Virus record (IMG/VR): IMGVR_UViG_3300050120_000213
Coordinates: 1 to 64,000 of that record
From: a virus
Strand: one strand, 5' to 3'
Length of the DNA stretch: 64,000 nt
In this document: piece after piece, positions 50 through 62,871 of the stretch
How the letters are laid out: each line of letters starts with the position of its first letter
Position numbering within the stretch: position 1 is the stretch's first letter
Translations under genes and position numbers: made by a program
Notes under the pieces: model-generated
Databases searched by the model: none
What the model was told of the DNA's origin: nothing
Seen by the model: only the letters and a program-made list of their open reading frames with translations

Positions 50-222
50 ACAGGTAATACGAAAATCATAAACTGGGTCTTTCCACATTCGCATGTGGGC
101 CTGTATCCACTCGGCCACCGTCCCGTCAAATGCGCGATCCGCAATCAATTGCACACTTGGCGGGACGGGCTGGATTCGAACCAGCGTAACCCGACGCCAA
201 CTATAACGACAACGCTACCTGT
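50..222 (-). ncRNA. Circularly permuted tRNA-like structured RNA (non-decoding)
   Basis: Minus-strand order: T arm GCTGG-TTCGAAT-CCAGC (185-169), CCGTCCC-G-CCA (168-158), extended hairpin linker, GGGACGG (124-118), D arm GCCG-AGTGGATAC-AGGC, hairpin CACAT-GCGA-ATGTG. Enclosed by pairings 188-192/75-79 and 216-222/50-56. Confidence 0.65.
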
Positions 223-236
223 TTCACATTTACTGC

Positions 237-1034
237 CTATACCGCGTTGTTGACCGGCGCTGCAAGCAGCGGCTCCATCAACAGCTTTTTGATCGCGTCG
301 CCAATCGAGGCGGCCTTGCTGACTTCGACCGAGTTGGCGCGTACCCGAGCAGACTTGACCGCGATAATCAGATCGTCAATGACCGCCAGCAAGTTGGCCT
401 TCTGAATCGCTGCCACCGCGCCGCTGGTGTGTTGGGTCGTGAACGTACCGACCACCTTATCTGCCGAACTGATCTTGACCTGGGCCGGGTGGTGTTGGGT
501 CGGCTGGACCATAATCACCGGGACTTCGACCTTTTCGGTCTTGGTCGTAACCGTTGCCTTGACTGCCCGATAGGTGCCCGGTTGCTCAGCGCTGGCGTCA
601 TACTGCCATTCACGGCTGGCGTCGAGCGTGGGGATGCGGAGCGCCAGCTTACGAAAATCTGTCAGCCGCACTTCCAGGCCCATCAATTCGTCAACCGGTA
701 CATCGTTGGCAATCGTGGTACCACGAAATTCGAGGTCGGCCATCGCACGGGTGTTCGTAACGTTCTTTTGCGCCAGCAACGTCTCGGCCTTGGCCCAATA
801 CGTCAGGTAATAATCGAGCGTTGCCACCACCGTGGTAGCCAGTTCCTTGTCTGCCCGGGCTGCGGCTTCGATGGACTTGTTGGCTTGGTCGTCGCCCAAC
901 ATCTCAAGGGTTTTTGTGCCCCCGGTGAAGAACGACTCCTGCTTGCCGAACTTGTTGTCTGTGTCTTCGGTCAGTCGATCACGAGCACTGGTAACCGTCT
1001 TTTCTGCCGCAAGCAATTCGTGTAACAAGGTCAT
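237..1034 (-). CDS. Hypothetical helical protein (265 aa) flanked by structured RNAs
   Basis: Long ORF; start moved to ATG 1034 behind the ATGGAG RBS; promoter at 1189-1216. Confidence 0.8.
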   Translation of the reverse strand: MTLLHELLAAEKTVTSARDRLTEDTDNKFGKQESFFTGGTKTLEMLGDDQANKSIEAAARADKELATTVVATLDYYLTYWAKAETLLAQKNVTNTRAMADLEFRGTTIANDVPVDELMGLEVRLTDFRKLALRIPTLDASREWQYDASAEQPGTYRAVKATVTTKTEKVEVPVIMVQPTQHHPAQVKISSADKVVGTFTTQHTSGAVAAIQKANLLAVIDDLIIAVKSARVRANSVEVSKAASIGDAIKKLLMEPLLAAPVNNAV

Positions 1035-1188
1035 AAAGCACTCCATTGTGGTGAAATGTGGTTAAGTAGACAGATTCTGCCAGTCATACAGCCCCTGGGC
1101 ATCCCCCAGGTGGGTATGAGTCCAACGAATCTATCCGCTTAACAACCCCCAACTTCTTTGGGGCCGTCGAGTTCCGCAGTGAGATTCC

Positions 1189-1216
1189 ATTATAGCAGTT
1201 CACTGCGGTTTGTCAA
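1189..1216 (-). promoter_or_regulatory. sigma70-type promoter TTGACA-N16-TATAAT with extended -10 TG
   Basis: Perfect consensus hexamers upstream of 237..1034. Confidence 0.85.
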
Positions 1217-1221
1217 ACGGT

Positions 1222-2079: not shown

Positions 2080-2137
2080 GAGCTCCATTTCGTTACAACC
2101 AGCCCCCCAATTGCAATCAATTGCAACCCAGGGGAAT

Positions 2138-4466: not shown

Positions 4467-4682
4467 TCATTTCTTAACCTTTTTCTTCAACTGTAGTTCT
4501 TCCAACAAACTCGCTGCCGCAATGCGCTGGCTGGCATTGGCGGATACGAGCCGTTCATAACGCTGTATCAGCAGCGTAAGGCCAGAAAACTCCCGGTTCA
4601 AGCGCTCGCCTTCTTGCTCCAGACGATCAAGTTCGGCGGTCAAACGGCCTTTCTTACCGTGCGGTGACTTGTTGGTGATCAT
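4467..4682 (-). CDS. Small coiled-coil hypothetical protein
   Basis: ORF coupled by ATGA overlap. Confidence 0.55.
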   Translation of the reverse strand: MITNKSPHGKKGRLTAELDRLEQEGERLNREFSGLTLLIQRYERLVSANASQRIAAASLLEELQLKKKVKK

Positions 4683-4867
4683 TTGTTACCCCCTAAGCCC
4701 CTCAGCGTTTGAATCGCCTTACGGCGGGACTTGATTTGTGCCAAACGTTTCTCGTGCTGGTCCATCAATCTACGTAGCACCTGACAGTTCTCGTTCAACG
4801 TGCGCTGCTCATTGATCAACCTAGCTTCCTCGTTATCTAGCTGGGCTAGACTTACCGTGCTGGTCAT
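4679..4867 (-). CDS. Small coiled-coil hypothetical protein
   Basis: ATG 4867 behind GGAGGAGG. Confidence 0.6.
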   Translation of the reverse strand: MTSTVSLAQLDNEEARLINEQRTLNENCQVLRRLMDQHEKRLAQIKSRRKAIQTLRGLGGNK

Positions 4868-5084
4868 CCCCTCCTCCTGCAATTGATTGCAAAACCCCGT
4901 GTGGCATCCAGGCGTAAATCGGTGCGCCATTGACCGTGACTTCTTCGGTTAAGGCGTAGTGGCCTTGGACGTTGTAAAACTTACAATCCTCAGTGCAGTT
5001 AATCACTGCCGGGGGGTTGATCGTGTCGAGGCCCCTGGTCTTCTTGTCGCGGGGGCCGCCCGTGAACTTGACACGCAATCTCAT
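4833..5084 (-). CDS. Hypothetical protein
   Basis: ORF; F-x-GGP-x-D motif common in small phage proteins. Confidence 0.5.
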   Translation of the reverse strand: MRLRVKFTGGPRDKKTRGLDTINPPAVINCTEDCKFYNVQGHYALTEEVTVNGAPIYAWMPHGVLQSIAGGGDDQHGKSSPAR

Positions 5085-6115: not shown

Positions 6116-7036
6116 TTATCCCACATAGATCAGTGCCCCTAGTTGATCGGAAATTTGTACCCCAAGATTCAAGCGATGATAAGCTTGTACCAAAGCGTCT
6201 TCATGTACTTCTATCGGGCAATCCCAACCGGGGATGACTGTCCCCATCAGGTTACCAATGTTCGGGTGCACAATGCACGACCCCGACAACCGCGAGTCGA
6301 TCTCCATCACGCGGAGTTCGCCTCGGTAATAGCGCCACTGCACGTTGAAATGCAGTGGGTCTTCGATCTCGTGAAGCGTCCAGCTATTCAGTAGCTGTCT
6401 AATCTTCAGGTCTAGTTCGTGCCCCAGGGGGGTTTCATTGCCAAAAACATACACCTCGGTATCTCGGCCATCAACTCTAACCAAGGATTGCCGGTGGCAG
6501 CTTAAAAACACATCGCCACCCCCCATCACAAACACATCACTGATGTACTCCCTGGCATCGTCAGACCCCGCCTGAATCACATCGTCGTCAGCCATCGGGG
6601 GGGCTTCCTCCATCTTAGCGAAACGAATATTTTTCCCTCCTGACGAAACCGCAGGCTTAAGCACTACGCCGTGAAACGAATCAAAAATTGCCTTGTAGTA
6701 CTTAGCCAACATGTAGGGGATTTGTAGCCCAGCGGCTAGCTGGTTCAACTGGCGCTTATCATCGAAATAGCTCAGAACCAGCGGGTCCGTGGTCGGGGCG
6801 TAGCCATACCGCTGTAGGCGGGCTGCCGAACTACACGGCATTAGAATGGCGTCGCCGTACAAGGTCTTGGCTACGTGCAGTCCCATAGTACTGTATTCAG
6901 CGGCCACCCCTGGGTCGAAATCATCGACAACGAAAAACTGCACAGGTTGCTTAGTCATCTGCATCACGTGCTGAATGTACAGCGCCTTCAATTTGGCCGA
7001 ATAGCTTCCAGCATCGGGCATCAGAATTTGGATCAT
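6116..7036 (-). CDS. ATP-grasp fold protein
   Basis: DDK, VVLKPAVSSGGKNI, EYISD, FNVQ and MEIDSRLSG (E-I-N-x-R-like) motifs. Confidence 0.75.
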   Translation of the reverse strand: MIQILMPDAGSYSAKLKALYIQHVMQMTKQPVQFFVVDDFDPGVAAEYSTMGLHVAKTLYGDAILMPCSSAARLQRYGYAPTTDPLVLSYFDDKRQLNQLAAGLQIPYMLAKYYKAIFDSFHGVVLKPAVSSGGKNIRFAKMEEAPPMADDDVIQAGSDDAREYISDVFVMGGGDVFLSCHRQSLVRVDGRDTEVYVFGNETPLGHELDLKIRQLLNSWTLHEIEDPLHFNVQWRYYRGELRVMEIDSRLSGSCIVHPNIGNLMGTVIPGWDCPIEVHEDALVQAYHRLNLGVQISDQLGALIYVG

Positions 7037-7701
7037 AGGTAAAACGCCAGTAAGCTGTCAAAGGTCACTCGATCCCCTACCCCCACTGTGACGTTGAGAT
7101 TATCGGCAGGGATAAACAAATCTACTTGGGAGCCGCGCTGCACAAACCCCAGCACCATACGCTCGCCATAGGGGTAAAACAGGCTACTAAGTCGATTAAC
7201 GTACTTATCATAGATCAGGTCTGCAACGACGCCGTGACTAAAAAAGAACCGGGTACGGCGGTTGCCAGCGATGTACTTACTGATCTTACGCTCCCACCAA
7301 TCCCCCCACCACCGACTCGTGACCATGCGCCAGTCATCTTGGGCTTCCCACATCTTGTCAAACTTACCACCAATATCCAGGGTCTTCCATAACGTGTAAC
7401 TTTTACCTGGGCTGATTAGGTGGTGGTTATTCAGCGGGGTCATAAACACCCCAATCTGAATATAATCTAACGCGGTGTCGAGGTGACTCGGAATTGGGAA
7501 GTGCCGCCCCCCCTTATCGATTAAGCCTTTACCCGCTGCAATTGATTGCACGTAGACCACCCGGCCTTCGACTAAGCTGTAGATCCACTCCTTCCCCTCC
7601 AAGGGCGTGCCGTTTGCCACAGGCTTACGGTAAAAGTACACCGAACGTAGCCAAAAAGCGTACACATGCGCTATTGCCAGCAAAGCGAAGAACAATATCA
7701 T
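7033..7701 (-). CDS. Phosphatidylserine decarboxylase-like (pyruvoyl) protein
   Basis: N-terminal membrane anchor, EGRVV, IGVFMTPLNNH, and GSQVDLFIP resembling the Psd GS self-cleavage site. Confidence 0.65.
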   Translation of the reverse strand: MILFFALLAIAHVYAFWLRSVYFYRKPVANGTPLEGKEWIYSLVEGRVVYVQSIAAGKGLIDKGGRHFPIPSHLDTALDYIQIGVFMTPLNNHHLISPGKSYTLWKTLDIGGKFDKMWEAQDDWRMVTSRWWGDWWERKISKYIAGNRRTRFFFSHGVVADLIYDKYVNRLSSLFYPYGERMVLGFVQRGSQVDLFIPADNLNVTVGVGDRVTFDSLLAFYL

Positions 7702-9162: not shown

Positions 9163-9353
9163 GATATAAAATCCAGTAGCGCCAGCGTGACTTCCTTGAC
9201 CTCGGTGCCATGCTGCACAAACAAGGTGGCGGGGTTGCCGTCGCGGGAATCGAGTTCTTTGCACTGGGCCGTGTACGTGACGACGCCCAGGTAGGTGTGC
9301 TCTAGCTGAGCGCCAGCTTCGAGGAAGGCTTTGTGAATCGGAGTGGTTCTCAT
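9159..9353 (-). CDS. Small hypothetical protein
   Basis: 4-bp overlaps at both ends. Confidence 0.55.
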   Translation of the reverse strand: MRTTPIHKAFLEAGAQLEHTYLGVVTYTAQCKELDSRDGNPATLFVQHGTEVKEVTLALLDFIS

Positions 9354-9652
9354 AGGTGGGTATGAAGTCCGGTAACTTTTTCAAAAATGGATTGCAATTG
9401 ATTGCAACCGACTGCGTGCTTACTATTGATCAGTTTGATCGACGTACCGTATATCGAATAAAACGCCATGGTGTACAAGTCATCCCCGGTCAATAAAATT
9501 TGTACTCGACGGATGTTTTTACTACGCGGAATAAAAAATTGCAGGCCATTTTTTAATGCAATAAATTTACTGGCACCGGTCATGACCGCAAAACGATTAC
9601 CACCTAACTGACGTAGGATGGTGGCCCCTACTTCTTTATCAATTATTTCCAT
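9350..9652 (-). CDS. Hypothetical phage protein
   Basis: TILRQLGGNRFAVMTGA...TGLHTHL; ATG 9652 behind ATGGAG RBS. Confidence 0.75.
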   Translation of the reverse strand: MEIIDKEVGATILRQLGGNRFAVMTGASKFIALKNGLQFFIPRSKNIRRVQILLTGDDLYTMAFYSIYGTSIKLINSKHAVGCNQLQSIFEKVTGLHTHL

Positions 9653-9685
9653 GATTTCGGACTCCATTCCGTTGATTTAGATTTA

Positions 9686-11864: not shown

Positions 11865-11892
11865 ACACAAAAATTGCAATCAATTGCAACGC

Positions 11893-13742: not shown

Positions 13743-13774
13743 AGTATTTACTGATTTTTTGCAATCAATTGCAA

Positions 13775-13976: not shown

Positions 13977-14537
13977 CTAACTGCCTACTGATAGTGCAGC
14001 ACCCATATACTGGGGTGTACGAACCTTAGAATTAAACAACATTCGCCCCGCGTTACAGCCATTACAAGACGGTACTACATTACTCCAGGCGTTGTTATGC
14101 CGGTCATGATCTAAGTGATCAACATGAATAGGCTCACACTTACCACTTTCTTCTGGAAACCACTCCAGTGGGGCTGCGCACCAAAAACAGGGCACTCTAG
14201 CATTACCAATTTGCTCATACAGAGCTACTCTGTGAGCGTATACACGTCCACGTACATCTGCTAAAAAATGCCCGTGTAACGTTAGCTGTTTGTATCTTTT
14301 TGGATTTAGGGTTCTTAGATTGCCATCAAGGGGCAGCCCTTTACGGAATCTTCGTAGATGGGTTTGGCATAAACCATTACTCTTATGCCTACTAGAACAG
14401 CCCTCTACAGAACATATAACTACAGGACGAGTGTAATTTACGTCACCGTAAAAACGTAAACGCCAACTATGCATTTGGCACAGCCCGCCTTTCCTACAAC
14501 TAGGCTTTACGCAACCATTAACCGAACAAGTTTTCAT
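13977..14537 (-). CDS. HNH endonuclease with N-terminal Cys/His repeats
   Basis: C-x4-C...GLC-x2-H twice; HVDHLDHDRHNN...NVVPSC-x2-CN. Confidence 0.8.
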   Translation of the reverse strand: MKTCSVNGCVKPSCRKGGLCQMHSWRLRFYGDVNYTRPVVICSVEGCSSRHKSNGLCQTHLRRFRKGLPLDGNLRTLNPKRYKQLTLHGHFLADVRGRVYAHRVALYEQIGNARVPCFWCAAPLEWFPEESGKCEPIHVDHLDHDRHNNAWSNVVPSCNGCNAGRMLFNSKVRTPQYMGAALSVGS

Positions 14538-14857: not shown

Positions 14858-15364
14858 TTAGTCGTAATCACTGTTATTCATGGCGCGTTCCGACGCCCCG
14901 AGTGCTTCTTTGATACGCTTGGACAAACTACTAGTGGCCTTAGTCGCGCCACCCTGCGGGACTTTTTTAAGCTGGGCTGCGTCAAACTCGATCTGTGCTC
15001 GTTGCAGTGCTGCCAAGGTAGCCTGATACCCTTCGATCAGCTTGTTGGTGGCATCGAGCGGGATCGGCATGTCCTTCTCTTTTTCCATCGCCTTATCGAC
15101 GCGAGCTTTTTGCAGCCGCGCCAGCGCCAACAACTCGTCAAGAGGGCTGAATGGCGCTAAGACCAGATCATCCGGCGTAATCTTTTTTGGAATCAGACTT
15201 TTGCGGTATGCCGTAATCAATTGAGCCACTGAATCCCGCACCACATCGGTGAAGTGTCCTTCTTTCTGGAGGTGTTCTGCAATAGCCAACGAATCCAATT
15301 GGCTGGTCTTAATCACCAATAACGTGACTTCTGGAAGTTCTTCAATGCGGTTAAATTTCGACAT
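14858..15364 (-). CDS. Hypothetical helical protein
   Basis: 168-aa ORF in the operon. Confidence 0.65.
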   Translation of the reverse strand: MSKFNRIEELPEVTLLVIKTSQLDSLAIAEHLQKEGHFTDVVRDSVAQLITAYRKSLIPKKITPDDLVLAPFSPLDELLALARLQKARVDKAMEKEKDMPIPLDATNKLIEGYQATLAALQRAQIEFDAAQLKKVPQGGATKATSSLSKRIKEALGASERAMNNSDYD

Positions 15365-15860
15365 TTACATGCCCCCATGTAGCCCCACGCTTTATATCAC
15401 TAACCGTCATTACGTGAACGCCGAACTCTTTTGCTAACACGTTGCCACGTTCCCCGCCCAATAACCTAATTTTAATTTCTCTGACTTGGATTTCGGTCAA
15501 TTTAGACGGGCCTGCATCTTCTCCAATAGGGAGTCTTCCCCGAATAATTTTATCTTTGCAATTATCTCCGTGTGTCCCAGCAACTAAATGATTAGGGTTA
15601 CAACACGGAGGATTATCGCAAGTATGTCTAATTACTATCCCCTCAATATCTTCTAGTGATAATTTATGGGCCACTGCATAAGATAGTCGGTGAGATAAAG
15701 TGTTTCCAACCCCCTCCCATGAACACCTACCGTAGCCATTTCTATCTATTCGGCCAGGGTATAGCATACATTCTCCGTACCCTTCTGCAATCAATTGCAC
15801 GGATTTAATAACATTAAGCCAATACCTTACTTTCTTACCAGCATTTCTAATCATTCTCAT
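15351..15860 (-). CDS. HNH endonuclease with C-terminal HTH
   Basis: HRLSY, RHTCDNPPCCNPNHL-x-AGT-x2-DN, SKLTE. Confidence 0.85.
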   Translation of the reverse strand: MRMIRNAGKKVRYWLNVIKSVQLIAEGYGECMLYPGRIDRNGYGRCSWEGVGNTLSHRLSYAVAHKLSLEDIEGIVIRHTCDNPPCCNPNHLVAGTHGDNCKDKIIRGRLPIGEDAGPSKLTEIQVREIKIRLLGGERGNVLAKEFGVHVMTVSDIKRGATWGHVNVEI

Positions 15861-16689
15861 CTATACTCTCCAGAGTAGGCAATTCAATCCCCTCTGAAAT
15901 TATAACTTTCTCGCCATTCTCAATTAATTTATTCAGTATCTGACTACCTTTTTCTGATAGTGAGAAATCAATCAATCCGTTTAGAACAGCATCTAATGCC
16001 ACTGCTCCGTCGATGCACTTGTGCCCCAACGCGATTAACTTTTTCCTCTCAGCCGACGCCATCCTTATCCACACACTATCTCTGCCACCATAATCCAACA
16101 GCATGAAATTGTAGTCGAGGGTATTTCCGTATTTGCTGAACATCCCGTTAAGTAACTTGCTTAGGCCATCGATGGTTTTAAGTTCTTTGGCCGCCTTCTC
16201 GAAATCTGCCTGCAACTCCTTTGGCAAAGATTTCGACATTTGTTTAGTCAGTTTCTTAAAGGCTTCTTCGTCTGCGAAGCCGAAGGCTTCGGCCATGATC
16301 TCAGCTTCGTACTTCTTGTCCAGAGAGTTGTACAACGCCATGAACTTATCCGGCGACATCTTACCGCGTATCACATTCATCCTGACGACTTGGAATTTTT
16401 CTTGATCGTCGTCAAACTCGGGATCATCAATGATTGTGCAAGGCACTTCCTCAAAACCATGTAGCTTAGCCATTTCCCAACGATGGTGACCACCGACAAT
16501 CCGGTACACGTCTTCCGCGATACGCCGTACAAAAATCGGATCGGTTATCCCGATCTTGTCGAAATTGTCACTGAGCATATTAAACTCAGCGTCCGACATC
16601 GTGTTAGGGTTGTCTTTGTTCGCCACCAACTGACCAATAGGCAGGTTGCGGCGCTCTAAGGCGTTGGTCTTCGAAAGTGCGTCACTCAC
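15847..16689 (-). CDS. ParB/Srx N-terminal domain protein
   Basis: NPN-x-MS, PIFVR, YRIVGGHHRW, RMN-x-IRG. Confidence 0.8.
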   Translation of the reverse strand: MSDALSKTNALERRNLPIGQLVANKDNPNTMSDAEFNMLSDNFDKIGITDPIFVRRIAEDVYRIVGGHHRWEMAKLHGFEEVPCTIIDDPEFDDDQEKFQVVRMNVIRGKMSPDKFMALYNSLDKKYEAEIMAEAFGFADEEAFKKLTKQMSKSLPKELQADFEKAAKELKTIDGLSKLLNGMFSKYGNTLDYNFMLLDYGGRDSVWIRMASAERKKLIALGHKCIDGAVALDAVLNGLIDFSLSEKGSQILNKLIENGEKVIISEGIELPTLESIDEND

Positions 16690-18100
16690 GGATCATCACT
16701 CCTACATCCTTAGTGTCGGTCCAGCCTAACTGGGCGGCCACAATTTTCAACATGATCGTGCTGGGGGTGCGCCCTAATACCCGAGACTCAGTGTTCTCTA
16801 TGGTAGTCCCCATTTTGAACATTGTCTCATTTATTACCGCGTTGAGATCCAAGGTTGGCCCTGCAATTGATTGCAACCGTTCCCGATAGGTTTGGCCCAT
16901 GTCAGACGTAAGCACGTTGCGTCGTGCCTCAAAATCTGCCACCAACTCCACCAACTTATCGCCTGTGGTGACGTTCTTAGCCGGATCCGCCACATAGGCC
17001 GCCCAGTAATTTTCTTCCCAGGTTTTGAACTGCTCGTACATAAAAAAGTAGTCGTCGGCAAACTTCTTTAACAACGTATAGGCTTCGAGTTCGTTCTTGA
17101 CTCTAAACGGGTATTCTTTGCCCAAAAATGCATTCCAGGGCCGTTCATACAACACCATAGGCACGCCTGCCAACAACGTTTCCCAGGTAGACAACGAAAA
17201 ATCCTCGGTGTCTACCATGGACACCACTACGTGCTGGGTGTCTAGGTACTTCCAGAATTTCTCCCGGTCGTTTAGCTGAATGTCCATAAACGACATATCG
17301 AGCACTTCCGCCCCACCCGTCGAATTGGAGTTGGTGCTCACACTAAACTTCATAGACTTGTTCGGGCCGATGGGGTAGCTGAAATGCTTTTGAAAAAGCT
17401 CTACCACGTCATTGAAGTTGCGGCCCGAAGTCATACGCCCCACAAATCCCACGTTAAAATCAGCAGCGGTGACTGTGGGTACATTACGCATATTCAGCCG
17501 CGTCAGGCGCACCGGCACCACCTCATGGATCTTATCCAATACCTTTTTCTGCCATGCTGGCGACAACATCTCCTTCAACACCGGGCGTAGCGCGGTCTTA
17601 GTCCACTGATTATTAATCAGAGTGGCATCCACCAGCCCATACGTCGCCAACGTATCTGCCCACAAATGCTCGTGCCAAGGCACCGTATCCCTAAATGGCA
17701 GGATCGGCATTTCTTCCAGGCCGATATACAGACGCTGCCACGGCATCTTGTCGGACAGCGGGCGGGCTGCATGAACCGGAAAGTGCTTAAGCATCGGGAT
17801 GCGACTACTCACTACCACATCGACGTCCCAGGCCAGCCCGCACCACGGGTTGAGGTAGGTCCGCAACTCGTTGCGAATCATGTACAACTCGCTGAGTCGA
17901 TCCGTGGGATCGGACGGCAGATCTAGCAACGTGACGCGATCCGGGTGTCGGGAGAGAAAATCGAGATCTTCTGGCTCGCAGCGGTCTGCGGGGTAGGTCA
18001 GATAAATAAATACATCGTCGCGCCACGCGATTAACTGCTCTATCAGTTCCCAGGCAAGGTAGCTCGTGGAACATATCCGGGGCCGCTGGGTGTAAACCAC
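16682..18100 (-). CDS. Glycosyltransferase (GT-B/GT4-like)
   Basis: VGFVGRM-x3-RNF and EDFSLSTWETLLAGVPMV (E-x7-E) motifs; true start may be about 18 nt upstream. Confidence 0.7.
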   Translation of the reverse strand: MVYTQRPRICSTSYLAWELIEQLIAWRDDVFIYLTYPADRCEPEDLDFLSRHPDRVTLLDLPSDPTDRLSELYMIRNELRTYLNPWCGLAWDVDVVVSSRIPMLKHFPVHAARPLSDKMPWQRLYIGLEEMPILPFRDTVPWHEHLWADTLATYGLVDATLINNQWTKTALRPVLKEMLSPAWQKKVLDKIHEVVPVRLTRLNMRNVPTVTAADFNVGFVGRMTSGRNFNDVVELFQKHFSYPIGPNKSMKFSVSTNSNSTGGAEVLDMSFMDIQLNDREKFWKYLDTQHVVVSMVDTEDFSLSTWETLLAGVPMVLYERPWNAFLGKEYPFRVKNELEAYTLLKKFADDYFFMYEQFKTWEENYWAAYVADPAKNVTTGDKLVELVADFEARRNVLTSDMGQTYRERLQSIAGPTLDLNAVINETMFKMGTTIENTESRVLGRTPSTIMLKIVAAQLGWTDTKDVGVMIRE

Positions 18101-18105
18101 GTCGA

Positions 18106-18723
18106 TTAAGCACTTAATTTTAGGGCCTCTCTTGGGTCAATTTTACGTTTAACGATACGTTGATAAGCGGTATTGTACTTGACACCAGTTTGCTCACACC
18201 ATTCACGTAATGTCTTAGTAACCCCATCAATTGTCACCTGATGTACATTACGTCGATTTATTCCTTGTTCTATCTTGGTGGCCCAACGCACGTTCCCTGG
18301 CTCGTAATTGCCATCGTTGTTTGGAAAACGGTCTAAAGTCATGCCATCTGGCGGCGAACCTACGTCCTCAAAGAAATTCTCAAATACCATCCACCTCTCA
18401 CAAACAGTTATACCTCTCCCACCGTAATCAGAATATGCGGGGCAATTAACATCAAAACATCTCTGTTTCATGCTCATCCACGTATTATGGATTGAGGTGT
18501 GGGACATACCATGCCGGTACTGAGAATTAACAATTCCCGTTACTCGACTACACCCACAAGATTTGTGGTAGCCAGCACGTACATACTTTGCTTCAATCCA
18601 TTTCTCTGCACCACATTCACAACGACACAACCACCAAAGCCAGCCAATGCCTTTCCTATTTTCATGCTGTCTACGTTCAGACTTTATTACGGTCAATTTA
18701 CCGTACACTGTCTCTGAAATCAT
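18106..18723 (-). CDS. HNH-family homing endonuclease-like protein
   Basis: WLCRCECG, SCGC, MKQRC, YGGRGITVCERW, LDR...GNYEPGNVRWAT. Confidence 0.8.
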   Translation of the reverse strand: MISETVYGKLTVIKSERRQHENRKGIGWLWWLCRCECGAEKWIEAKYVRAGYHKSCGCSRVTGIVNSQYRHGMSHTSIHNTWMSMKQRCFDVNCPAYSDYGGRGITVCERWMVFENFFEDVGSPPDGMTLDRFPNNDGNYEPGNVRWATKIEQGINRRNVHQVTIDGVTKTLREWCEQTGVKYNTAYQRIVKRKIDPREALKLSA

Positions 18724-19796: not shown

Positions 19797-20797
19797 GCAA
19801 CTTTACTCCGAATCTTCTGACGTAAGAGGTCCGTAAATGCGGGGGCGCTCTTGCCGTAAAAATGCAAGGCGTTCTGTCTGTGATATTCGGGCATACGCAT
19901 GATATACCTCACCGTATTTGCAATTGATTGCACAAACGGAACTTCAGTTTTCATCCCTACGGATTCCCAGTAGCTCATATCTGCTTTGAGCATGATGTCA
20001 TCGCCTTCTCCTTCCCGCATTTTTATATGCTGAATCTCACTAAATGACTTAGTACCCAAAGACGCCAATTCGTGGTCAACAGCATTCAAAATCAATGCAC
20101 AAGCATCATTGCAACTAATGTCGTTACCACTACCAAGATCAACGACAACAGGATGCTTGCCAAGATTACGGCAGGCGTGAAGGGTAAAGCGTGACATGTC
20201 TTCCACATCAATCGGGTCAATCGTTTGATTACCACTACCATAAATTTCAAGAGGGAAGTCATAGAGGGCTAGCAGAACCATCATAGGCAAGAACTTGCGT
20301 ACTGGGTACAAATGTTGGTGTGGCCCGACGGCATTCAGCCACCGCACCGTCGCCACGTTCATGTCGTACTTGTCACGGTACAGCAGCCCCAGCAACTCCC
20401 CGGCGTGTTTGGTCAGAGTGTATGCGTTCTCCGCGTAGCCTTCGAAATGGGGCTTCGCAACGTTATACACGCGTCTAACGCCTTGGATTCGGGCAGCGTC
20501 GAGCACATTTGCGCATCCAACCACATTCGTTTCAACGGCCAAACTGACGCAGGCCAATAGCTCGCTCGTACCGAGGACTCCAGCCAAGTTATAAACTTCA
20601 TCTACGTCCTCGAAGGCGTCAATCAACGATTTTAAGTTACGGATATCGGCGTACACGTACGTGGTTTTCGGCCCTAGTGGTATGCAGGGGGCCACCAAAT
20701 CAATCAGCACGATTTCCGTATCCGGCTCTTTGCGCTGCAGATAATCAGTTAGGTTACTTCCGATGAAGCCTGTACCACCCGTTATCGCTACGCGCAT
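19793..20797 (-). CDS. NAD-dependent nucleotide-sugar epimerase/dehydratase
   Basis: ITGGTGFIGS, YNLAG, Y-x3-K (YTLTK), NAVGP. Confidence 0.9.
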   Translation of the reverse strand: MRVAITGGTGFIGSNLTDYLQRKEPDTEIVLIDLVAPCIPLGPKTTYVYADIRNLKSLIDAFEDVDEVYNLAGVLGTSELLACVSLAVETNVVGCANVLDAARIQGVRRVYNVAKPHFEGYAENAYTLTKHAGELLGLLYRDKYDMNVATVRWLNAVGPHQHLYPVRKFLPMMVLLALYDFPLEIYGSGNQTIDPIDVEDMSRFTLHACRNLGKHPVVVDLGSGNDISCNDACALILNAVDHELASLGTKSFSEIQHIKMREGEGDDIMLKADMSYWESVGMKTEVPFVQSIANTVRYIMRMPEYHRQNALHFYGKSAPAFTDLLRQKIRSKVA

Positions 20798-20805: not shown

Positions 20806-21405
20806 CTATTTTTCCAATTTATACAAAGTACCGCGTTGGTGACGATTGTACAACGCCGGGTAAGAGATTCCCAGCTTTTCTGCAAGCTCTACAAGAGCTA
20901 TTTTGTCTCTTTTGAAAATAACCATAACTGTATTTCTTCTATTTCTATTTTGCTCTGTATCCGTGGCCCACCGACAGTTGTGCGGTTCGTAATTCCCATT
21001 AACATCAGGGTATCGATCTAAAGACAATCCCTCCGGTACTTCTCCCATGTCGGCTAGGAAGTTCTCGAACTTTAGCCAGCGGTCGCAAACAATTATCCCT
21101 CTGTCACCATAGTCTTTATAGGATTTGTGCTTGGAGTTGTAGCACCGTTGCTTCATGTGGTCCCAGCAAAAATATGTTGGGGTTTTACTATACCCATGCT
21201 TCATTACTCCGGTTGCCAATTCTTTTTGAAGGCAACCACAAGATCGGGTATTCCCGCTTCTTAGCCCATTTGAACGTGCTGAAATCTCAGTCCCGCAAGA
21301 GCATTTACATCTATAGCGCACCCTACCCCCGGCGCCATTAGCTACTCGATGTAACACCAAAAGACGTCCATAGGTATGCCCAGTTAAATCGATAATCTTT
21401 GTCAT
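20806..21405 (-). CDS. HNH-family homing endonuclease-like protein
   Basis: DLTG-x2-YGRL, CKCSCG, SCGC, MKQRC, GNYEPHNCRWAT; start 21405 by ATGA overlap. Confidence 0.8.
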   Translation of the reverse strand: MTKIIDLTGHTYGRLLVLHRVANGAGGRVRYRCKCSCGTEISARSNGLRSGNTRSCGCLQKELATGVMKHGYSKTPTYFCWDHMKQRCYNSKHKSYKDYGDRGIIVCDRWLKFENFLADMGEVPEGLSLDRYPDVNGNYEPHNCRWATDTEQNRNRRNTVMVIFKRDKIALVELAEKLGISYPALYNRHQRGTLYKLEK

Positions 21406-22091
21406 TTTTGCAGCCACAAAGTATAAGGCTCCGCCAGAGCCTCCCCTATAACGCTACCACATTGCATAGCATGTGCTCTAATATTTTCAGGAGAACGTGG
21501 GTGTGGGTGCGCCCTTATTTCATCCACATATGTAGCAACAGCTTTTTGTTTCACTTCCAATTGGTCCTCAGTCATCAACTCAAACCAATTTGCCCCTGTA
21601 GGGGTGCCACCATCGTGTGCGTGAGCTATTAGTACTCTTTTTACGCACCTCAAATTTGCGGGCCGCAAAGCAATTTTGCATATCCGACTTAAGTGTTCGT
21701 GATCTTGATTCAAATCTGAGGGACTAGGGATTACCACTTCATCATAGAAGCCGCCGCCCAGCGCCAACGTACCTTCGATGTGGGATAGCAGCATGTAGTG
21801 GCCGTGCTGGTATGGCTCGCCTTCTGCCAAACCCAAATACGTGGATATGATTGGGCCGTTTTTACTGTCTTTCGCCAGCACGGCTAAACTTTCTGAGAAA
21901 TTCTCCTTTTGGCGTCTCGCTAGGGCCACCGAAATGATTGAGTCGGGGTCATACTCAGGGTAAGCCCTTCCATGCACCACTAGCACCGTAACCAGCCCCT
22001 CGGGGTTTTGTAAGCGGTTCTGGATTAACCCCCCGCAAGAAAGAGCCTCGTCATCCGGGTGTGCGGCGACGATAAGTGTTTGAAAAGACAT
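21402..22091 (-). CDS. PIG-L/LmbE-family deacetylase
   Basis: AAHPDDE-x3-CGG and DLNQDH motifs. Confidence 0.85.
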   Translation of the reverse strand: MSFQTLIVAAHPDDEALSCGGLIQNRLQNPEGLVTVLVVHGRAYPEYDPDSIISVALARRQKENFSESLAVLAKDSKNGPIISTYLGLAEGEPYQHGHYMLLSHIEGTLALGGGFYDEVVIPSPSDLNQDHEHLSRICKIALRPANLRCVKRVLIAHAHDGGTPTGANWFELMTEDQLEVKQKAVATYVDEIRAHPHPRSPENIRAHAMQCGSVIGEALAEPYTLWLQK

Positions 22092-22097: not shown

Positions 22098-22298
22098 CTA
22101 CCCCAATGTGGCGGTCGTTTTATTGCAATTGATTGCACCCGCCGTCAACGCTTTGTGCTTCTTTAACTCTGCCAACCGTTGTTCATTACGCTGGCGTAGA
22201 GCGCGAAGTTCTTCGTTTAATGGCGTGGTGTCTTTGCTAGCTGTGACGTCACGTAAGGCTGGAAAAAATGTGAAATCTGTTTCTAGTTCTGTTCCCAT
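22098..22298 (-). CDS. Small hypothetical protein
   Basis: ORF with GGGAG RBS. Confidence 0.5.
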   Translation of the reverse strand: MGTELETDFTFFPALRDVTASKDTTPLNEELRALRQRNEQRLAELKKHKALTAGAINCNKTTATLG

Positions 22299-22318: not shown

Positions 22319-22582
22319 TTATCGCCACACAGGGGTGTAGTAAGCACATTCCCGTGCGCCAACTTTGGGATGCAATAATTGGCCGTGATTCCCTTTTAAT
22401 TTTACTTTTCCACTAACTGGGTCATACGACAACACTCTATACCCCTCCCCAGTTTCTCTATGTACCAACATCAATGTTTCTTTACGGGTATGCAATTCGG
22501 CCAATGCCGACAGAATCGTGTATTCAGCAGGGTCTACCGGCACTGCTACAGCTACACTTTTTTTGATAAAAACGACTGCCAT
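22319..22582 (-). CDS. Small hypothetical protein
   Basis: ORF with ATGGAG RBS. Confidence 0.6.
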   Translation of the reverse strand: MAVVFIKKSVAVAVPVDPAEYTILSALAELHTRKETLMLVHRETGEGYRVLSYDPVSGKVKLKGNHGQLLHPKVGARECAYYTPVWR

Positions 22583-23560: not shown

Positions 23561-23595
23561 AGGGAATTGCAATTGATTGCACCCCTACCAACTTC

Positions 23596-34585: not shown

Positions 34586-34613
34586 TTTGCACACTCCTTG
34601 TGGTCCTGAATTG

Positions 34614-39875: not shown

Positions 39876-39936
39876 AGATATTTTTGCAATCAATTGCAAT
39901 TTCTTCTTCAAGGGGCTAGGGGCCAATCCTCTGGTT

Positions 39937-40766: not shown

Positions 40767-41944
40767 AATTTTAACCAATTACCTTTTTTGATCGCATCGT
40801 ACACGATATCGGCCACTTCACTATGGGCCAACTCCGCCTTGCCCGTGGCTTCAATTGCCTCACGCAATTTATTCTGTACCGCCATGGCGGGGGCGTGGCC
40901 CGAAATGTCTTTGAACACTTCCAAACAAAATTGCTTGGCGTCTTTCAACGACAGTTTGGGTAAGTGCAATACCATATCCAAGCGCCCCGCCCGATACAGT
41001 TCCGGGGGAATTTTTTCTATGGCGTTGGTGGTCATGACAGTAAGTACCCGACTACGGTGCTCATTAAGCCACCACAGCAACGTGCTGAGTATCCGGGTAA
41101 TCACCCCCGTGTCATCAGAGTGATTGAAGATCTTTTCGATCTCATCCAGCAGAATCACGCACGGACTTTCCTGTTCGGCCAGGATTAGGCTGCGCTGCAC
41201 GCGGTTTTCTGATTCACCGATGTAGCGGTTGAGCGCTTGAGAAATATCAAGACGGTAAAGTGGGGTGCCTAAGCGCCGCGCTACCGCACGGGCCGCCATC
41301 GTCTTACCTACTCCCGGGGGGCCAGCCAGCATCACGCCGCGTGGCACCAGCTTATGGGGAGTGTTTTCAGATTCGAAGAATTTCTGATTCACCGTGAGCC
41401 ATTCTTCTAGCTTAGGCGGCCACACGTAAAAATCGTCGGAATCGGTGTCTAACGGAATTAACCCCTGAATTCCCCCCGTCAACGACAGGCGGGTTTTACG
41501 CACTTCGTGCGGGAGTAGTCCACTGGTGCGGGCAATCGTCAGATCCACCACTTCACTGGCAGTCTTTAGCGATAGCCCCTTCAGAATCTTTATTAGCGCT
41601 TCACGCTGGCTGGCCTGTGTGAAGGGCTTCAGGTAGTCATGCAGCATGTCGGGTGGCGCTGGCAACATACCACCATCAAACATCAGGCTGGAGGGCTTGG
41701 AGGGATTGATCACCACCAAACTAGCTTGGGCCTTCTTGAGCCTCTGATAGCTGTGTAGGGTTGCTACCTTTTCATCCAGCGTCCAGTAGACGTTGGGAAG
41801 TACCACGCCCTTGTCACCAACGTTGCCCCAGTCGTGAACTTTCTTGGGGCCTGCAATTGATTGCAAAACTTCCTCGCAATGCACCAGATCATCGGTAGTG
41901 CAGGAGATGAGGGGGATACGGGCTTTTATCGCGTCGTGAAGCAT
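40763..41944 (-). CDS. AAA+ ATPase (Ycf46-like architecture)
   Basis: GPPGVGKT, ILLDEIEK, TTN, PPELYRAGRLD. Confidence 0.88.
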   Translation of the reverse strand: MLHDAIKARIPLISCTTDDLVHCEEVLQSIAGPKKVHDWGNVGDKGVVLPNVYWTLDEKVATLHSYQRLKKAQASLVVINPSKPSSLMFDGGMLPAPPDMLHDYLKPFTQASQREALIKILKGLSLKTASEVVDLTIARTSGLLPHEVRKTRLSLTGGIQGLIPLDTDSDDFYVWPPKLEEWLTVNQKFFESENTPHKLVPRGVMLAGPPGVGKTMAARAVARRLGTPLYRLDISQALNRYIGESENRVQRSLILAEQESPCVILLDEIEKIFNHSDDTGVITRILSTLLWWLNEHRSRVLTVMTTNAIEKIPPELYRAGRLDMVLHLPKLSLKDAKQFCLEVFKDISGHAPAMAVQNKLREAIEATGKAELAHSEVADIVYDAIKKGNWLKL

Positions 41945-42488: not shown

Positions 42489-42962
42489 TTACACCGTTGC
42501 TGGGGGAATTACGTCAAGAGCCTGTAGGCCGTGTTGCGCAATGATCTCACCGATCTTCTGCCCATATAGCGGGTCCGTCGCGTAATTAGCAGCGGCCACC
42601 GCGTTGGCGAAGCTAGGACCATCTGTACAAGCGAAGGCCGGGGCATAACGTGGGTTGGTAATCAGGAACTGTGCGTGATCATTCAGGCTGGCGAGCCACG
42701 TGCTGTACTTACGAAACAGCGCTGGCTCCATCACCCAATGGCCTTTAAGAAACTCCCGAGTTTGGATCGCATACGTAGGTCCGGTCCAACTCGGGTCCGC
42801 CTTTACCCCAAACAAGTTCATTGCAGCTTGGGTCAGTTGCGAACCCCCCCACCCGCTCTCTAGCGCAGCATCAGCAATAACAAAACTGGCCGGGATGTTG
42901 GTGGCGGCCATGGACTGCTGAGCCGGGGCCGTCAACATCTGAATGAAAAATTGCGGGGTCAT
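42489..42962 (-). CDS. Endolysin, GH73 glucosaminidase (FlgJ-like)
   Basis: AALESGWG, NLFGVKA, FRKY, YATDP; ATG 42962 behind AGGAG. Confidence 0.88.
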   Translation of the reverse strand: MTPQFFIQMLTAPAQQSMAATNIPASFVIADAALESGWGGSQLTQAAMNLFGVKADPSWTGPTYAIQTREFLKGHWVMEPALFRKYSTWLASLNDHAQFLITNPRYAPAFACTDGPSFANAVAAANYATDPLYGQKIGEIIAQHGLQALDVIPPATV

Positions 42963-42992
42963 CGCCACTCCTAGTTTTGCAATCAATTGCAA

Positions 42993-47410: not shown

Positions 47411-47504
47411 TAAGATGGCCCGATAGTTATGGTCTTCCAAGTGTTAGGAGCATAACATTTACGGCATCTCGTCTGGAAGCCCCGCTGCAATTGATTGCAA
47501 ACGC

Positions 47505-47846: not shown

Positions 47847-47892
47847 AGTGGCTCACCAAATCTTGGTTAGGTACTTTTGCAATCAATTGCAA

Positions 47893-49130: not shown

Positions 49131-49162
49131 TCCTGCCCCTAGCTAAATTGCAATTGATTGCA

Positions 49163-53023: not shown

Positions 53024-53185
53024 GGCGGTTTCCTATTCGTGCAATCAATTGCAAAACTTAGCGCCCCCGCTTAGACTTCAACGCCGCCAAAATGTAACGC
53101 TGTCGGTACTGCTGGGCCTCTATAAAACCAAAATCATAAATGGACTGGCCGAAGAACTGTTCGAATCCTTCCTCACTTACCCATG

Positions 53186-57087: not shown

Positions 57088-57115
57088 GTTAGCTCACTGC
57101 AATTGATTGCAAAAT

Positions 57116-60611: not shown

Positions 60612-60612
60612 T

Positions 60613-61494
60613 TTAGTTGAACTCCTTGTTGATACGAACTTGCAGTTGAGCAGGCGACTTGAACTGGTCCATCCACGCGCTCGGGGAACCTACGAACTCG
60701 CTGATACGGCGGCCCGTGCGGTCATGCTTGACGATCTCGCGCAGCGTGCCTGGGGCAATGTCTGCCGGGTGAGCGGCGACGCGTTCTGCGTCAGCGTAGA
60801 TTGCCTTTTCGGCCACATCGAGCATCGAGTCAGGCACGACGGACAGATCGCGGTCTTTCCAGTCCGAGCTATGCGGCTTGAACTTGGCGGCCAAACGGCG
60901 GCGGTAATTCACCGGGGTTTCACCAGCCAGGGGGCCGGGAGCGCGGTCACCGAACGCATTTGCGACACCATCGGCACGGGCTTGAATTTCAGCCAGCGCC
61001 ACGCGGTCAGCGTCCGAGATGTGCACAGCGCCGGTCAGCGCGGCGAGGCGGTCTTGCATGTCCTTGAATTCAAGGTCACGCTTGGCCGAATCGGCTTTGG
61101 CTTCAGCTTCCGCATCGGCACGCATTTTGTCGGCCTTGGCTTTTTCTTCAGCTTCTGCGTCGGCCTTGGCCTTATCGGCAGCGGTTTCAGCGGGCTTTGC
61201 AGCAGCTTCGGCTTCAGCATCGGCACGAGCTTTATCAGCTTTTGCCTTTTCTTCAGCTTCAGCGTCAGCGCGGGCCTTGTCAGCCTTAGCCTTTTCTTCC
61301 TTCTCTTTTTCTTCGGCATCGGCGCGCATTTTGTCAGCGCGTGCCGCATCGTTCTTGAACACGTCCATCACCGCGTCACACTTGGCGGAGAGATTCTTTG
61401 CCCACGCAGGTTCTGCATCAGCGCGAGCCGCATCGGCCTTTGCCTTTTCAGCAGCTTCCGTATCAGCTTTGGCCTTCAACTCTGCTTCAGTCAT
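60613..61494 (-). CDS. Capsid scaffolding protein
   Basis: Repeated KAKADKARADAEAEE helices; follows the protease. Confidence 0.7.
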   Translation of the reverse strand: MTEAELKAKADTEAAEKAKADAARADAEPAWAKNLSAKCDAVMDVFKNDAARADKMRADAEEKEKEEKAKADKARADAEAEEKAKADKARADAEAEAAAKPAETAADKAKADAEAEEKAKADKMRADAEAEAKADSAKRDLEFKDMQDRLAALTGAVHISDADRVALAEIQARADGVANAFGDRAPGPLAGETPVNYRRRLAAKFKPHSSDWKDRDLSVVPDSMLDVAEKAIYADAERVAAHPADIAPGTLREIVKHDRTGRRISEFVGSPSAWMDQFKSPAQLQVRINKEFN

Positions 61495-61521
61495 TTCAAC
61501 TACTCCTTGGTGGTTTCAGAA

Positions 61522-62871
61522 TCAGGCTTGGGTTGCGGTGGCGGATTCAGAAATAATTCCGTATGGATCGCCACCCTTATCCCACACCCCTTGCTCACAA
61601 ATCGCCAGATGGTCAAGCAGGCTGGGTTCGCCTTCAATTAACAGTACCGAACCATCATTGAGTGCAATAGTACTATTTACCGTTCTATCGTGGAACACCA
61701 CAGAAGGTGAAGTTGACATATTTTCGTTATCGAGAATTGTCACCGTGTCTTCGTCATAGATCTTGGCGATACCCCATACCTCTTTTCCCAGGATAAACGG
61801 GCAAACCATCATACCTACCAGTCTTTCACTGAACTCAATCGAGTTCAAAACTTTCTTCTCGGGGTGTTGAAAAATCACCGCTAGACCTTGGCACCGGTCC
61901 AGAAAATCTTGATTCAGGTAGCTCTCTGGCCGACGAAAAACGTACTCGTCTTTGATTTCCACCTGAGTAACCTTGCCGTCCTTATCCTTTTTCTCGGGCT
62001 GGCCACGTCGAAAAGCCTTACCAGTGCCAGTGATACGCATCTTGTACATCGACACGTTGGCATATTTCTGTGGCGACGGCAGTGAACCATTCGTCATGGC
62101 CCGTGCGATGTGTAACTCGTTCATCTTGGTCAGACGCAAGGCCGTGACTTCTGGGGAATTGATCACTTCGAGCAGGCCGGGGATTACCGGGCCGCCCATC
62201 AACTCACCCATCGACAACCATTGATAGCTGACGTGTTCTTCATTCAGCACCACTTCGAACGGTTTGCACACGTTGACGAAGTAGGTGAACTCTGTGCCGT
62301 CCACCAGCGTCTGTGCAATCAATTGCAATCGGCCTTCGACTTCATGGCCGGTTTCTTCCAGCACCTCACGGATGGCGGTAAATTCCAGCGTCTCACCTTC
62401 CTCGTGATGGCCGCCAAAAATTCCCCAGTGGCCCTGGTATTCGCCTTGTTCCGCCCGCAGGCCCACTAGCACCTTGCCCCCGCTGGTAATAAACAAGATG
62501 CCCGCCGCCTGCTTCTTTACTGCCTCGTCATCTTTCTTGATGATGGGGGTGGGGTCGGCAGAAAACTCCACGTCATCAGCGCGGGTTTCCGCTGAATCAG
62601 CTTTTACGTCTGGTTCAAACAGGCATTCAGTTTCTTGGATGGTTTGAATCCCCAGCGACTGCAAAAACACGAGTAAGGGCCACCGACCTTCCCCGACGCA
62701 GTATTCCTCTAACGACTGGGCGGTGTCACCGTGAGTTTCCAGAAAGCGGTCTCGCGCTGCAATCACTTGCAGTGCGGAACCCGAACCCAAATTGGCGTGC
62801 GCAATGGCCCGCTTGGCGTATTCAGCCGGGGTGAGCTTCGAGGTTTCCATAATCTGTTCGGCGGTGCTCAT
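61522..62871 (-). CDS. NUDIX hydrolase fused to a DUF2213-like prohead protease
   Basis: Nudix box GGHHEEGETLEFTAIREVLEETG; C-terminal QHP...STSP...DHLAIC-x2-G. Confidence 0.75.
   Translation of the reverse strand: MSTAEQIMETSKLTPAEYAKRAIAHANLGSGSALQVIAARDRFLETHGDTAQSLEEYCVGEGRWPLLVFLQSLGIQTIQETECLFEPDVKADSAETRADDVEFSADPTPIIKKDDEAVKKQAAGILFITSGGKVLVGLRAEQGEYQGHWGIFGGHHEEGETLEFTAIREVLEETGHEVEGRLQLIAQTLVDGTEFTYFVNVCKPFEVVLNEEHVSYQWLSMGELMGGPVIPGLLEVINSPEVTALRLTKMNELHIARAMTNGSLPSPQKYANVSMYKMRITGTGKAFRRGQPEKKDKDGKVTQVEIKDEYVFRRPESYLNQDFLDRCQGLAVIFQHPEKKVLNSIEFSERLVGMMVCPFILGKEVWGIAKIYDEDTVTILDNENMSTSPSVVFHDRTVNSTIALNDGSVLLIEGEPSLLDHLAICEQGVWDKGGDPYGIISESATATQA

Follow-up and report, generated by a model that had tools for sequence, protein, structure and literature searches.

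The subject of this report is a 64,000-nucleotide stretch of viral DNA (the window), positions 1 to 64,000 of IMG/VR record IMGVR_UViG_3300050120_000213 and the first 64 kb of a single 99,510-bp contig (phage G000), and in particular a 14-bp dyad, TGCAATCAATTGCA (reverse complement TGCAATTGATTGCA), which recurs throughout it. From sequence comparison we propose, with a probability of roughly 0.55, that the copies form a lattice of loading sites, akin to that of KorB and its OB operators, for the phage's own orphan ParB-type clamp, the 280-residue product of the gene at 15847-16689. Dimers of this protein would bind the dyad as a high-affinity docking or loading site, from which they may spread or slide, as KorB does on plasmid RK2; at nine promoter-proximal copies the protein would modulate early transcription, and the remaining copies would provide genome-wide coverage. 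Such coverage could serve to silence the phage in a plasmid-prophage state, to organise or segregate the genome, or to recruit the genetically linked glycosyltransferase/amino-sugar module to phage DNA.

Within the window the 14-mer was found in 24 exact copies, 12 in each orientation. This recount returned the number given by the first-pass annotation of this DNA, at the same places, and the start coordinate of 141 that had been assigned to the array is accounted for by a one-mismatch copy, CGCAATCAATTGCA, at 140-153, which with TGCAATCACTTGCA at 62758-62771 makes up the two such copies in the window. The whole genome holds 40 exact copies (22 plus, 18 minus) and four with one mismatch, and degenerate copies are almost absent. 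Markov models of order 1-5 predict 0.002-0.06 copies on both strands, beside which the earlier chance figure of about 0.0005 for 64 kb is of the right order. ParB, Noc and KorB proteins bind 13-16-bp palindromes with adjacent half-sites, and the 14-mer is a dyad of this size and build, with the arms TGCAAT and ATTGCA placed around a non-palindromic 2-bp centre, CA, that is not self-complementary. The bases flanking the 40 copies are biased towards T at position -1 (T27/G7/C6/A0) and A at position +14 (A28/G9/C3/T0), so that the 14-mer is effectively a 16-bp dyad, tTGCAAT-CA-ATTGCAa; conservation ends at ±1 bp.

The copies are evenly spread, about one per 2.5 kb with gaps between 392 and 5751 bp, and the coefficient of variation (CV) of the spacing is 0.50 for the genome, compared with 0.98 under random placement (P<5e-5), and 0.53 for the window alone (P=4e-4). 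In this arrangement 88% of the genome lies within 1.5 kb of some copy, and the farthest point is at most 2.9 kb away. Even spacing was found in four independent genomes, namely G000 (CV 0.50), the phage contigs G008 (0.56) and G013 (0.51), and Stenotrophomonas phage DLP5 (0.47), with P<=2e-4 in each. The centre was CA or TG in 129/129 sites of G000, G008 and G013, and a palindromic TA or CG in 0/129; counts pooled by hand show a weak bias for CA on the coding strand (103 vs 72 sites, P=0.02).

Comparison with related genomes indicates that the site is maintained by selection acting on the DNA itself. Relatives were located via the tail sheath protein, and in the closest, G001-G003 (76-79% sheath identity), the 12-mer core is unchanged and is flanked by C..G in place of T..A. 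Approximately 10-13 of the 19 core sites of G002 coincide with the mapped position of a G000 site or fall a few tens of bp from it, among proteins that are only 45-65% identical. In 11 orthologous in-gene pairs, picked because both members carry the core, the arms are identical at 110/110 positions and at 33/33 third codon positions, against 56% overall identity and 38% at third positions in the flanking 25 codons; the unbiased retention of alignable in-gene sites amounts to 5/9 in G002, 3/3 in G013 and 1/1 in G008. The site in the helicase gene reads AINC in three genomes and AIDC in G008, where it is flipped and the amino acid changed. The earlier claim that selection acts on the DNA is thus borne out by positions conserved in diverged relatives and by the third codon positions (33/33 vs 38%), and the assembly or adapter artefact which it had called unlikely is excluded because the sites are conserved in those relatives. 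In-gene copies align gap-free to orthologues without a copy (LQLIA versus LAQIA for the 33998 site and G002), and therefore reflect substitution, not insertion; an inserted mini-element of the REP or MITE type was rejected on the grounds of these gap-free alignments and of the lack of conservation beyond ±1 bp. G002 itself has 19 core sites in 80 kb with a CV of 0.64 and C..G flanks, three of them with a palindromic TA centre, and the 14-mer may be drifting in this lineage.

With respect to genes, 25 of the 40 copies do not lie fully within a minus-strand open reading frame (ORF), where 5.6 would be expected (P=2.5e-12, whole genome). Many sit 0-5 bp past the stop codon of the upstream gene, and the copies at 75200 and 90762, both beyond the window, themselves supply the TGA stop of a gene. 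In-gene copies are read mostly in one frame, xQ[L/S]IA (17/21 in the first ORF set), the others as AINC or CNQL. About 22 strong sigma70-type promoters (TTGACAAA-N-GTGCTATACT) were recognised, all on the minus strand and facing the direction of the genes, and nine copies stand upstream of their -35 boxes, seven at a distance of 6-9 bp and two at 17-19 bp, in either orientation (4 CA, 5 TG). A 7-bp gap to the -35 hexamer places the centre of the site near -49.5; class I OB sites of KorB lie closer to the promoter than this. The same layout recurs in G008, in G013 and in the more distant viral loci L319 and L315, with differing site sequences, the last two having their own lineage dyad 7-10 bp upstream of TTGACA boxes. 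The genome is unidirectional, because promoters occur on the minus strand only and ten of the ten plus-strand ORFs tested had no Pfam match; a divergently transcribed repressor was rejected for the same reasons. The gene-context readings of the first-pass annotation (LQLIA/LQSIA, AINC and CNQL, the copy inside an HNH gene at 15786, the junction copies) hold, and its promoter distances of 7-17 bp were recovered as 7 bp (23568), 9 bp (39885) and 17 bp (13760) upstream of -35. An extended promoter form, TTGACAAA-N(11-12)-(G)TGCTATA(C/G)T, is shared on the minus strand by promoters at window 1216-42482 and genome 75193-98339, and is also present in G002, G008 and G013. The sites of the window are compiled below; all are exact copies unless marked otherwise.

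140-153, plus strand: one-mismatch copy CGCAATCAATTGCA, 12-mer core intact
2112-2125, plus strand: gene junction, 12 bp past the upstream stop
4878-4891, minus strand: within ORF 4679-4930, reading CNQL
7537-7550, minus strand: within ORF 7033-7701, reading VQSIA
9393-9406, minus strand: within ORF 9350-9667, reading CNQL; no copy here in G002
11875-11888, plus strand: intergenic, 4 bp past the upstream stop
13760-13773, plus strand: 17 bp upstream of -35, promoter TTGACAAA...GTGCTATACT; site in G002 a few bp off the mapped position (intergenic, approximate)
15786-15799, plus strand: within HNH gene 15351-15860 (VQLIA), 47 bp downstream of the parB-like stop; orthologous in G002
16862-16875, minus strand: 3' part of the glycosyltransferase-like gene (LQSIA), 172 bp upstream of the parB-like start; orthologous in G002
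19919-19932, minus strand: within the epimerase/dehydratase gene (VQSIA)
22124-22137, minus strand: junction of minus-strand genes 21402-22091 and 22319-22582
23568-23581, minus strand: 7 bp upstream of the -35 of a strong promoter; site in G002 a few bp off the mapped position
24701-24714, plus strand: within the RuvC-like gene (LQLIA); kept in G002 and G013
30452-30465, minus strand: within the superfamily 2 (SF2) helicase gene (AINC); kept in G002 and G013, flipped in G008 (AIDC)
33998-34011, plus strand: within ORF 33713-34594 (LQLIA); LAQIA in G002
36722-36735, plus strand: within the replication-initiator-like gene (LQLIA)
39885-39898, plus strand: 9 bp upstream of the -35 of a strong promoter
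41852-41865, minus strand: within the AAA ATPase gene (LQSIA); kept in G013, absent in G002
42978-42991, plus strand: gene junction and 5' end of ORF 42489-42992; orthologous site with flipped centre in G002
47486-47499, minus strand: junction, 5 bp past the upstream stop
47878-47891, plus strand: junction, 1 bp past the upstream stop
49149-49162, minus strand: junction, directly against the upstream stop
53040-53053, plus strand: junction upstream of the lytic tail protein gene; site in G002 a few bp off the mapped position
57098-57111, minus strand: fills a 28-bp junction between virion genes
62314-62327, plus strand: within the NUDIX-domain gene (LQLIA); kept in G002 and G001
62758-62771, plus strand: one-mismatch copy TGCAATCACTTGCA

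The motif travels, as gene content shows, with the early/replication module that holds the ParB-like gene, and not with the virion module. The 14-mer was sought by pattern scans of IMG/VR and of bacterial genomes, for which all prevalence figures are lower bounds, and among the IMG/VR matches listed there were many contigs with multiple copies. G008 (97.8 kb, with terminal repeats) and G013 (93.4 kb), both complete, carry 40 and 47 copies, respectively, and share only 21-27 proteins with G000 at ≈ 42% identity; these are the early/replication block (15-42 kb, including the ParB-like gene) and the DNA polymerase, with no virion protein among them. G004 and G005 share the virion module only, and neither a ParB_N gene nor a lattice was found in them; a supposed other dispersed motif in G004 was rejected, being a 27-bp tandem coding repeat at the contig end. 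Cultured relatives were reached through 25 records in a phage collection that matched the ParB-like protein. DLP5 (96.5 kb, 58% GC) carries the identical 14-mer 26 times (CV 0.47, P=2e-4), once inside its parB-like gene gp114, at 70676, and Rhodobacter phage RcZahn has a looser form, TGCAaTcAAyTGCA, about nine times per 50 kb versus 0.3 expected. Altogether the identical 14-mer occurs 26-47 times in phages with unrelated virions, whose GC contents run from 51 to 58% and whose hosts belong to two or more proteobacterial classes. DLP5, a temperate phage, was obtained as a phagemid (PMC5834331, PMC7326821), and the DNA of DLP3 resisted all 15 restriction enzymes tried (PMC7326821), so that this phage group is taken to modify its DNA. 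The repeat goes unmentioned in the papers on DLP3 and DLP5 (PMC5834331, PMC7326821) and on RcZahn, and a literature search for the 12-mer returned only unrelated primers.

The candidate binder, its two companions in the module and the rival regulator are encoded as follows.

15847-16689, minus strand: ParB/Noc/KorB-like protein, 280 residues, with a ParB_N domain, a helical middle domain and an extra C-terminal alpha/beta domain
16682-18100, minus strand: glycosyltransferase (GT) of GT4-like type, 472 residues, 8-bp overlap with the parB-like start
14858-15364, minus strand: 168-residue partner downstream of the parB-like gene, with an HNH gene inserted between them; weak small-terminase-like (Terminase_5-like) lead
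28418-28981, minus strand: MerR-like helix-turn-helix (HTH) regulator, rival candidate binder

The 280-residue protein matches Pfam ParB_N (PF02195, E=1.8e-10), and its closest solved structures by sequence, in a phmmer search of the Protein Data Bank (PDB), are ParB and Noc. An AlphaFold (AF2) model built from 42 homologues has a mean confidence (pLDDT) of 81, and Foldseek matched it to Noc, ParB and KorB over ≈ 190 columns, which comprise the N-terminal and DNA-binding domains and are followed by the extra C-terminal domain. ParB-like homologues number ≈ 345. The dyad survey covered 36 viral loci that encode homologues, within 10 kb of the gene, and the dyads were found to differ by lineage (TGCAATTAATTGCA, TGCAATTAACTGCA, TGCAGTTAATTGCA, TGACATTAATGTCA, TGCAAGCGCTTGCA, TCCGCAAACGTTTGCGGA). 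A palindrome with 6-bp arms recurring at least three times was present at 15/36 loci (14/24 at 39% ParB identity or more) versus 3/88 control loci; recurrent dyads accompany homologues down to ≈ 39% identity, plus a few below, and none was seen with distant homologues, three C-terminally short ones among them. More distant ParB-like lineages have their own 14-18-bp palindromes, often with one inside the parB-like gene, and some (L320, L330, L337) use perfect palindromes. It is common for a site of the parS or Noc-binding site (NBS) type to lie inside or beside the parB gene; along these lines, many parB-like genes hold the site in their own C-terminal coding region (..LQLIA../..LQSIA..), and the internal copy of L320 has acquired the TA centre of its lineage by a synonymous change with LQLIA kept. 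The GT4-like gene adjoins the parB-like gene in nearly every locus with homologues; its own product gave no sequence match in Pfam or the PDB, and some of its homologues carry GT1/GT4 families.

In bacterial genomes the scan gave, among the matches listed, mostly single chance matches and two clusters. Comamonas testosteroni SWCO2 has five copies, all within one 5-kb island, and Paraburkholderia elongata 5N has 12 copies within 18 kb, duplicated on a second contig, 24 of the 28 genome copies lying in the two; the remainder of both genomes is nearly free of the core. Each cluster is an integrative island that encodes a P4-type integrase and a weakly Rep_trans-like initiator, and no protein of any weight is shared between G000 and the islands at E<=1. 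The N-terminus of a 235-residue ORF of the Comamonas island matches that of DLP5 gp005, a scaffold-like protein whose gene follows that of the prohead protease (41% over 88 residues, E=2e-14), and a weak small-terminase-like (TerS-like) ORF adjoins it. Because of these weak to moderate matches, the Comamonas island looks like a satellite of DLP5-like phages. On the proposed clamp reading, islands with an array but no ParB gene would be read in trans by the protein of a helper phage. The Comamonas island (L149:12797-19777, SWCO2 scaffold 10) lies beside tRNA-Ser. That of Paraburkholderia (≈ 22 kb, L146:17287-L147:15557, contig C163, duplicated on C293) carries defence-like cargo, i.e. a 1441-residue NOV_C protein, a DUF4145 protein, an ADP-ribosylglycohydrolase and a Sel1 protein, as well as two copies of a longer repeat in which the 14-mer is embedded (..cttTGCAATCAATTGCAgaatccg..cgcaattgcttggctgc..).

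The closest known counterpart is KorB with the 12 OB operators of IncP plasmid RK2 (PMC11790492), likewise a ParB-family protein whose single 13-16-bp dyad is scattered in many copies across a mobile genome, partly next to -35 boxes and partly far from promoters or within genes. From an OB site KorB can slide as far as 1.5 kb (PMC11790492), and by analogy this range would offer a rationale for a spacing that leaves 88% of the genome within 1.5 kb of a site. The present system differs in residing in a phage, in having ≈ 40 sites instead of 12, in their strikingly even spacing, and in the GGHHRW motif and extra C-terminal domain of the protein, for which, unlike KorB, no KorA or IncC/ParA partner was found. 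A second precedent is provided by the Cluster O mycobacteriophages, whose 17-bp dyad repeats, TGTTCGGNNNCCGAACA, occur in more than 30 copies with a published function of "unknown"; about a third lie inside genes, most lie away from promoters, and a dimeric binder was predicted by the authors (PMC4351075). As in G000, the orientation of these repeats is not tied to transcription, and genes for a ParB-like domain protein and for glycosyltransferases are likewise present (PMC4351075). The two cases differ in sequence, in host phylum and in phage group; the authors drew no connection between the repeats and the ParB-like protein, and even spacing, conservation across virions and satellite-like islands are unreported there (PMC4351075).

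Noc with its 14-bp NBS and ParB with parS furnish the best structural matches of the candidate binder and share 14-16-bp palindromes with it, but Noc and ParB work with cellular partners and the phage sites form a lattice at 2.5-kb intervals. A 4-Mb chromosome has ≈ 70 Noc sites, and parS sites are concentrated around the origin. Cluster A stoperators resemble the lattice in that a temperate phage genome contains dozens of exact short sites, both between and within genes, one of them at a promoter. The immunity repressor binds them, and they are asymmetric and follow the direction of transcription (PMC4351075), whereas the phage sites are dyads, 22 plus and 18 minus in a genome transcribed in one direction. 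Phage proteins with a "ParB-like nuclease domain" and no ParA partner are widely annotated, their role largely unknown, and the present case ties such orphans to the Cluster O dyad repeats, which since 2015 have been listed as "function unknown" (PMC4351075). Evolution has retained one exact site over a very long time, across unrelated virions, 51-58% GC and at least two proteobacterial host classes, with a spacing rule that fits a sliding clamp and satellite-like islands that copy the lattice. The idea is directly testable, as the same 26 sites and the orthologous gp114 exist in the cultured phages DLP5, DLP3 and Summit.

The exactness of the site, its conservation, its independence of orientation, its even spacing and its position at promoters together support the core inference of the first-pass annotation, i.e. 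that it is probably a genome-wide binding site for a dimeric protein. Among the three binders proposed there, the ParB-like protein (15847-16689) is clearly best supported, by its fold, by the lineage-specific palindromes and by the copy inside the parB-like gene of many relatives; the MerR-like HTH protein (28418) is a rival from that list. A number of points weigh against assigning the lattice to the ParB-like protein. Its CTP-pocket motif reads GGHHRW, not GERRxR, with G66, G67 and R70 invariant in 42 homologues and the acidic and first arginine positions of the CTP box changed; the middle domain was modelled at low confidence (pLDDT 54-80); covariation of recognition residues with the site gave no clear positions in 24 aligned sequences; and no ParA, IncC or KorA partner was recognised among ≈ 80 proteins compared with Pfam, PHROGs and NCBIfam, a search not exhaustive for small ORFs. 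Moreover, the ParB of G002 is 78% identical yet goes with C..G flanks, and those of L331 and L333 are 33-35% identical yet go with the same 14-mer. Every gene of the early module is inherited together with the site, and ParB is therefore not alone in this linkage; no ParB_N gene was found near the arrays of the two islands, and the invariant CA/TG centre is unexplained by a simple symmetric dimer.

It is unlikely that another early-module protein (MerR-like 28418-28981, the 168-residue protein or the initiator-like winged HTH protein) binds the lattice as a global, stoperator-like operator set. These genes co-inherit with the motif in G002, G008, G013 and DLP5, and the promoter-proximal copies look like operators. 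However, genomes that have the 14-mer in identical form show identities of only 24-29% for the initiator and 34-35% for the MerR-like protein, and MerR-type operators lie between -35 and -10, unlike sites found upstream of -35; L319 possesses a dyad lattice of its own, and of the G000 proteins just the ParB-like and the GT-like one have homologues in the 10 kb around its parB-like gene, and an orientation not tied to transcription does not fit stoperators. A cis signal for packaging (pac-like) or for replisome loading or priming, copied by satellites, is slightly less likely. It would suit the arrays in two islands without phage proteins, one of them with the gp005-like N-terminus and the weak TerS-like gene, the travel of the motif with the replication module, and the location in DLP5 and RcZahn of the parB-like gene and its partner, the latter with the weak Terminase_5-like lead, directly upstream of the large terminase (TerL) gene. 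Yet G000 and G002 use a different terminase pair, common to the lattice-free G005, with the lattice kept under strong selection; the fixed position upstream of -35 boxes is unexplained by such a signal, and an exact 14-mer every 2.5 kb is not matched by known systems, there being to our knowledge no packaging or priming system that requires one.

An extension of the clamp proposal, which we regard as a long shot, treats the lattice as an address code: the ParB-like clamp would load at the 14-mers and carry or license the GT4 protein and the amino-sugar pathway (deacetylase, dehydratase, aminotransferase), so that only DNA with a loading site every few kb would become hypermodified, and satellite islands would copy the lattice for the same protection. 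If true, it would jointly explain the ParB-GT linkage, the even spacing, the restriction resistance of DLP3 and the arrays in ParB-less islands. Improbable, and a shade more so, is an enzyme target, either for a site-specific nick of the T5 type (by the ParB-like nuclease domain or an HNH nickase) or for site-specific base modification. The invariant asymmetric CA/TG centre suits a strand-choosing enzyme, several HNH genes are present, and DLP3 DNA is resistant to 15 restriction enzymes (PMC7326821); resistance to that many different enzymes, on the other hand, points to global and not site-specific modification, a modification target would need neither even spacing nor promoter adjacency, and perfect palindromes occur in L320, L330 and L337.

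Very improbable and already largely refuted is the site of a host-encoded factor, such as an uptake sequence, a Chi-like site, or that of a transcription factor or nucleoid protein. The 14-mer is common to unrelated Burkholderiales mobile elements, and in 301 Burkholderiales genomes, a survey that included one unpublished genome (G043, one match) on which no conclusion depends, the 12-mer core is apparently 20-fold commoner than its reversed control, an excess that is due to a poor, stop-rich control and to QLIA-type codon strings. Each genome has only ≈ 1 core, scattered, and of 20 examined nearly all lie inside genes with random flanks, none (0/20) with T..A flanks, which is consistent with chance strings of such codons. 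The host k-mer enrichment that had been suggested as a check was not seen chromosome-wide, and a host uptake, Chi or host-factor site was rejected on these whole-genome counts; all five Comamonas copies lie within one 5-kb island, and the same 14-mer occurs in a gammaproteobacterial phage, DLP5, with a looser form in a Rhodobacter phage.

Turning to the remaining gene content, the phage encodes a tail sheath, a baseplate and a tail fibre and is therefore myovirus-like; essentially all genes lie on the minus strand, and the terminase pair is found at 85980-86975 (TerS) and 84646-85980 (TerL). The replication/recombination block comprises a DnaB-like helicase, a primase, the SF2 helicase, a UvsX-like recombinase, an exonuclease, RuvC, a single-stranded DNA-binding (SSB)-like protein, the initiator-like protein, the AAA ATPase and a DNA polymerase. 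A sugar cluster of PIG-L deacetylase, epimerase/dehydratase, DegT aminotransferase and the GT4-like protein is followed directly by the 280-residue ParB_N protein. A PAPS-reductase-like gene (phrog_424) lies at genome 94338-95111, ≈ 22 kb from the parB-like gene, and the two genes together are reminiscent of the IbrA/IbrB and DndC/DndB-type pairs, for which an action on DNA has been proposed. Outside the window, at genome 89989-90004, stands one perfect chromosomal-type parS, TGTTTCACGTGAAACA, which is absent from G002, G008, G013 and DLP5 and could let the phage use the host ParABS system if it persists as a plasmid. Four HNH-type endonuclease genes are present (13977-14537, 15351-15860, 24823-25287, 39937-40440); that at 15351-15860 is inserted between the parB-like gene and the partner normally found downstream of it, and has 84% identity in G002. 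Four further ORFs, at 18106-18723, 20806-21417, 32650-33111 and genome 83955-84692, three of ≈ 200-245 residues and one of 153, two of them inside the sugar cluster, all match one and the same locus in G002, and likewise in G008, and by sequence look like a scattered mobile gene family, perhaps homing-endonuclease-like. Finally, the DUF7873 protein at window 237-1046 is 92% identical to its G002 homologue, compared with a genome average of 56%, which suggests recent exchange or strong constraint.

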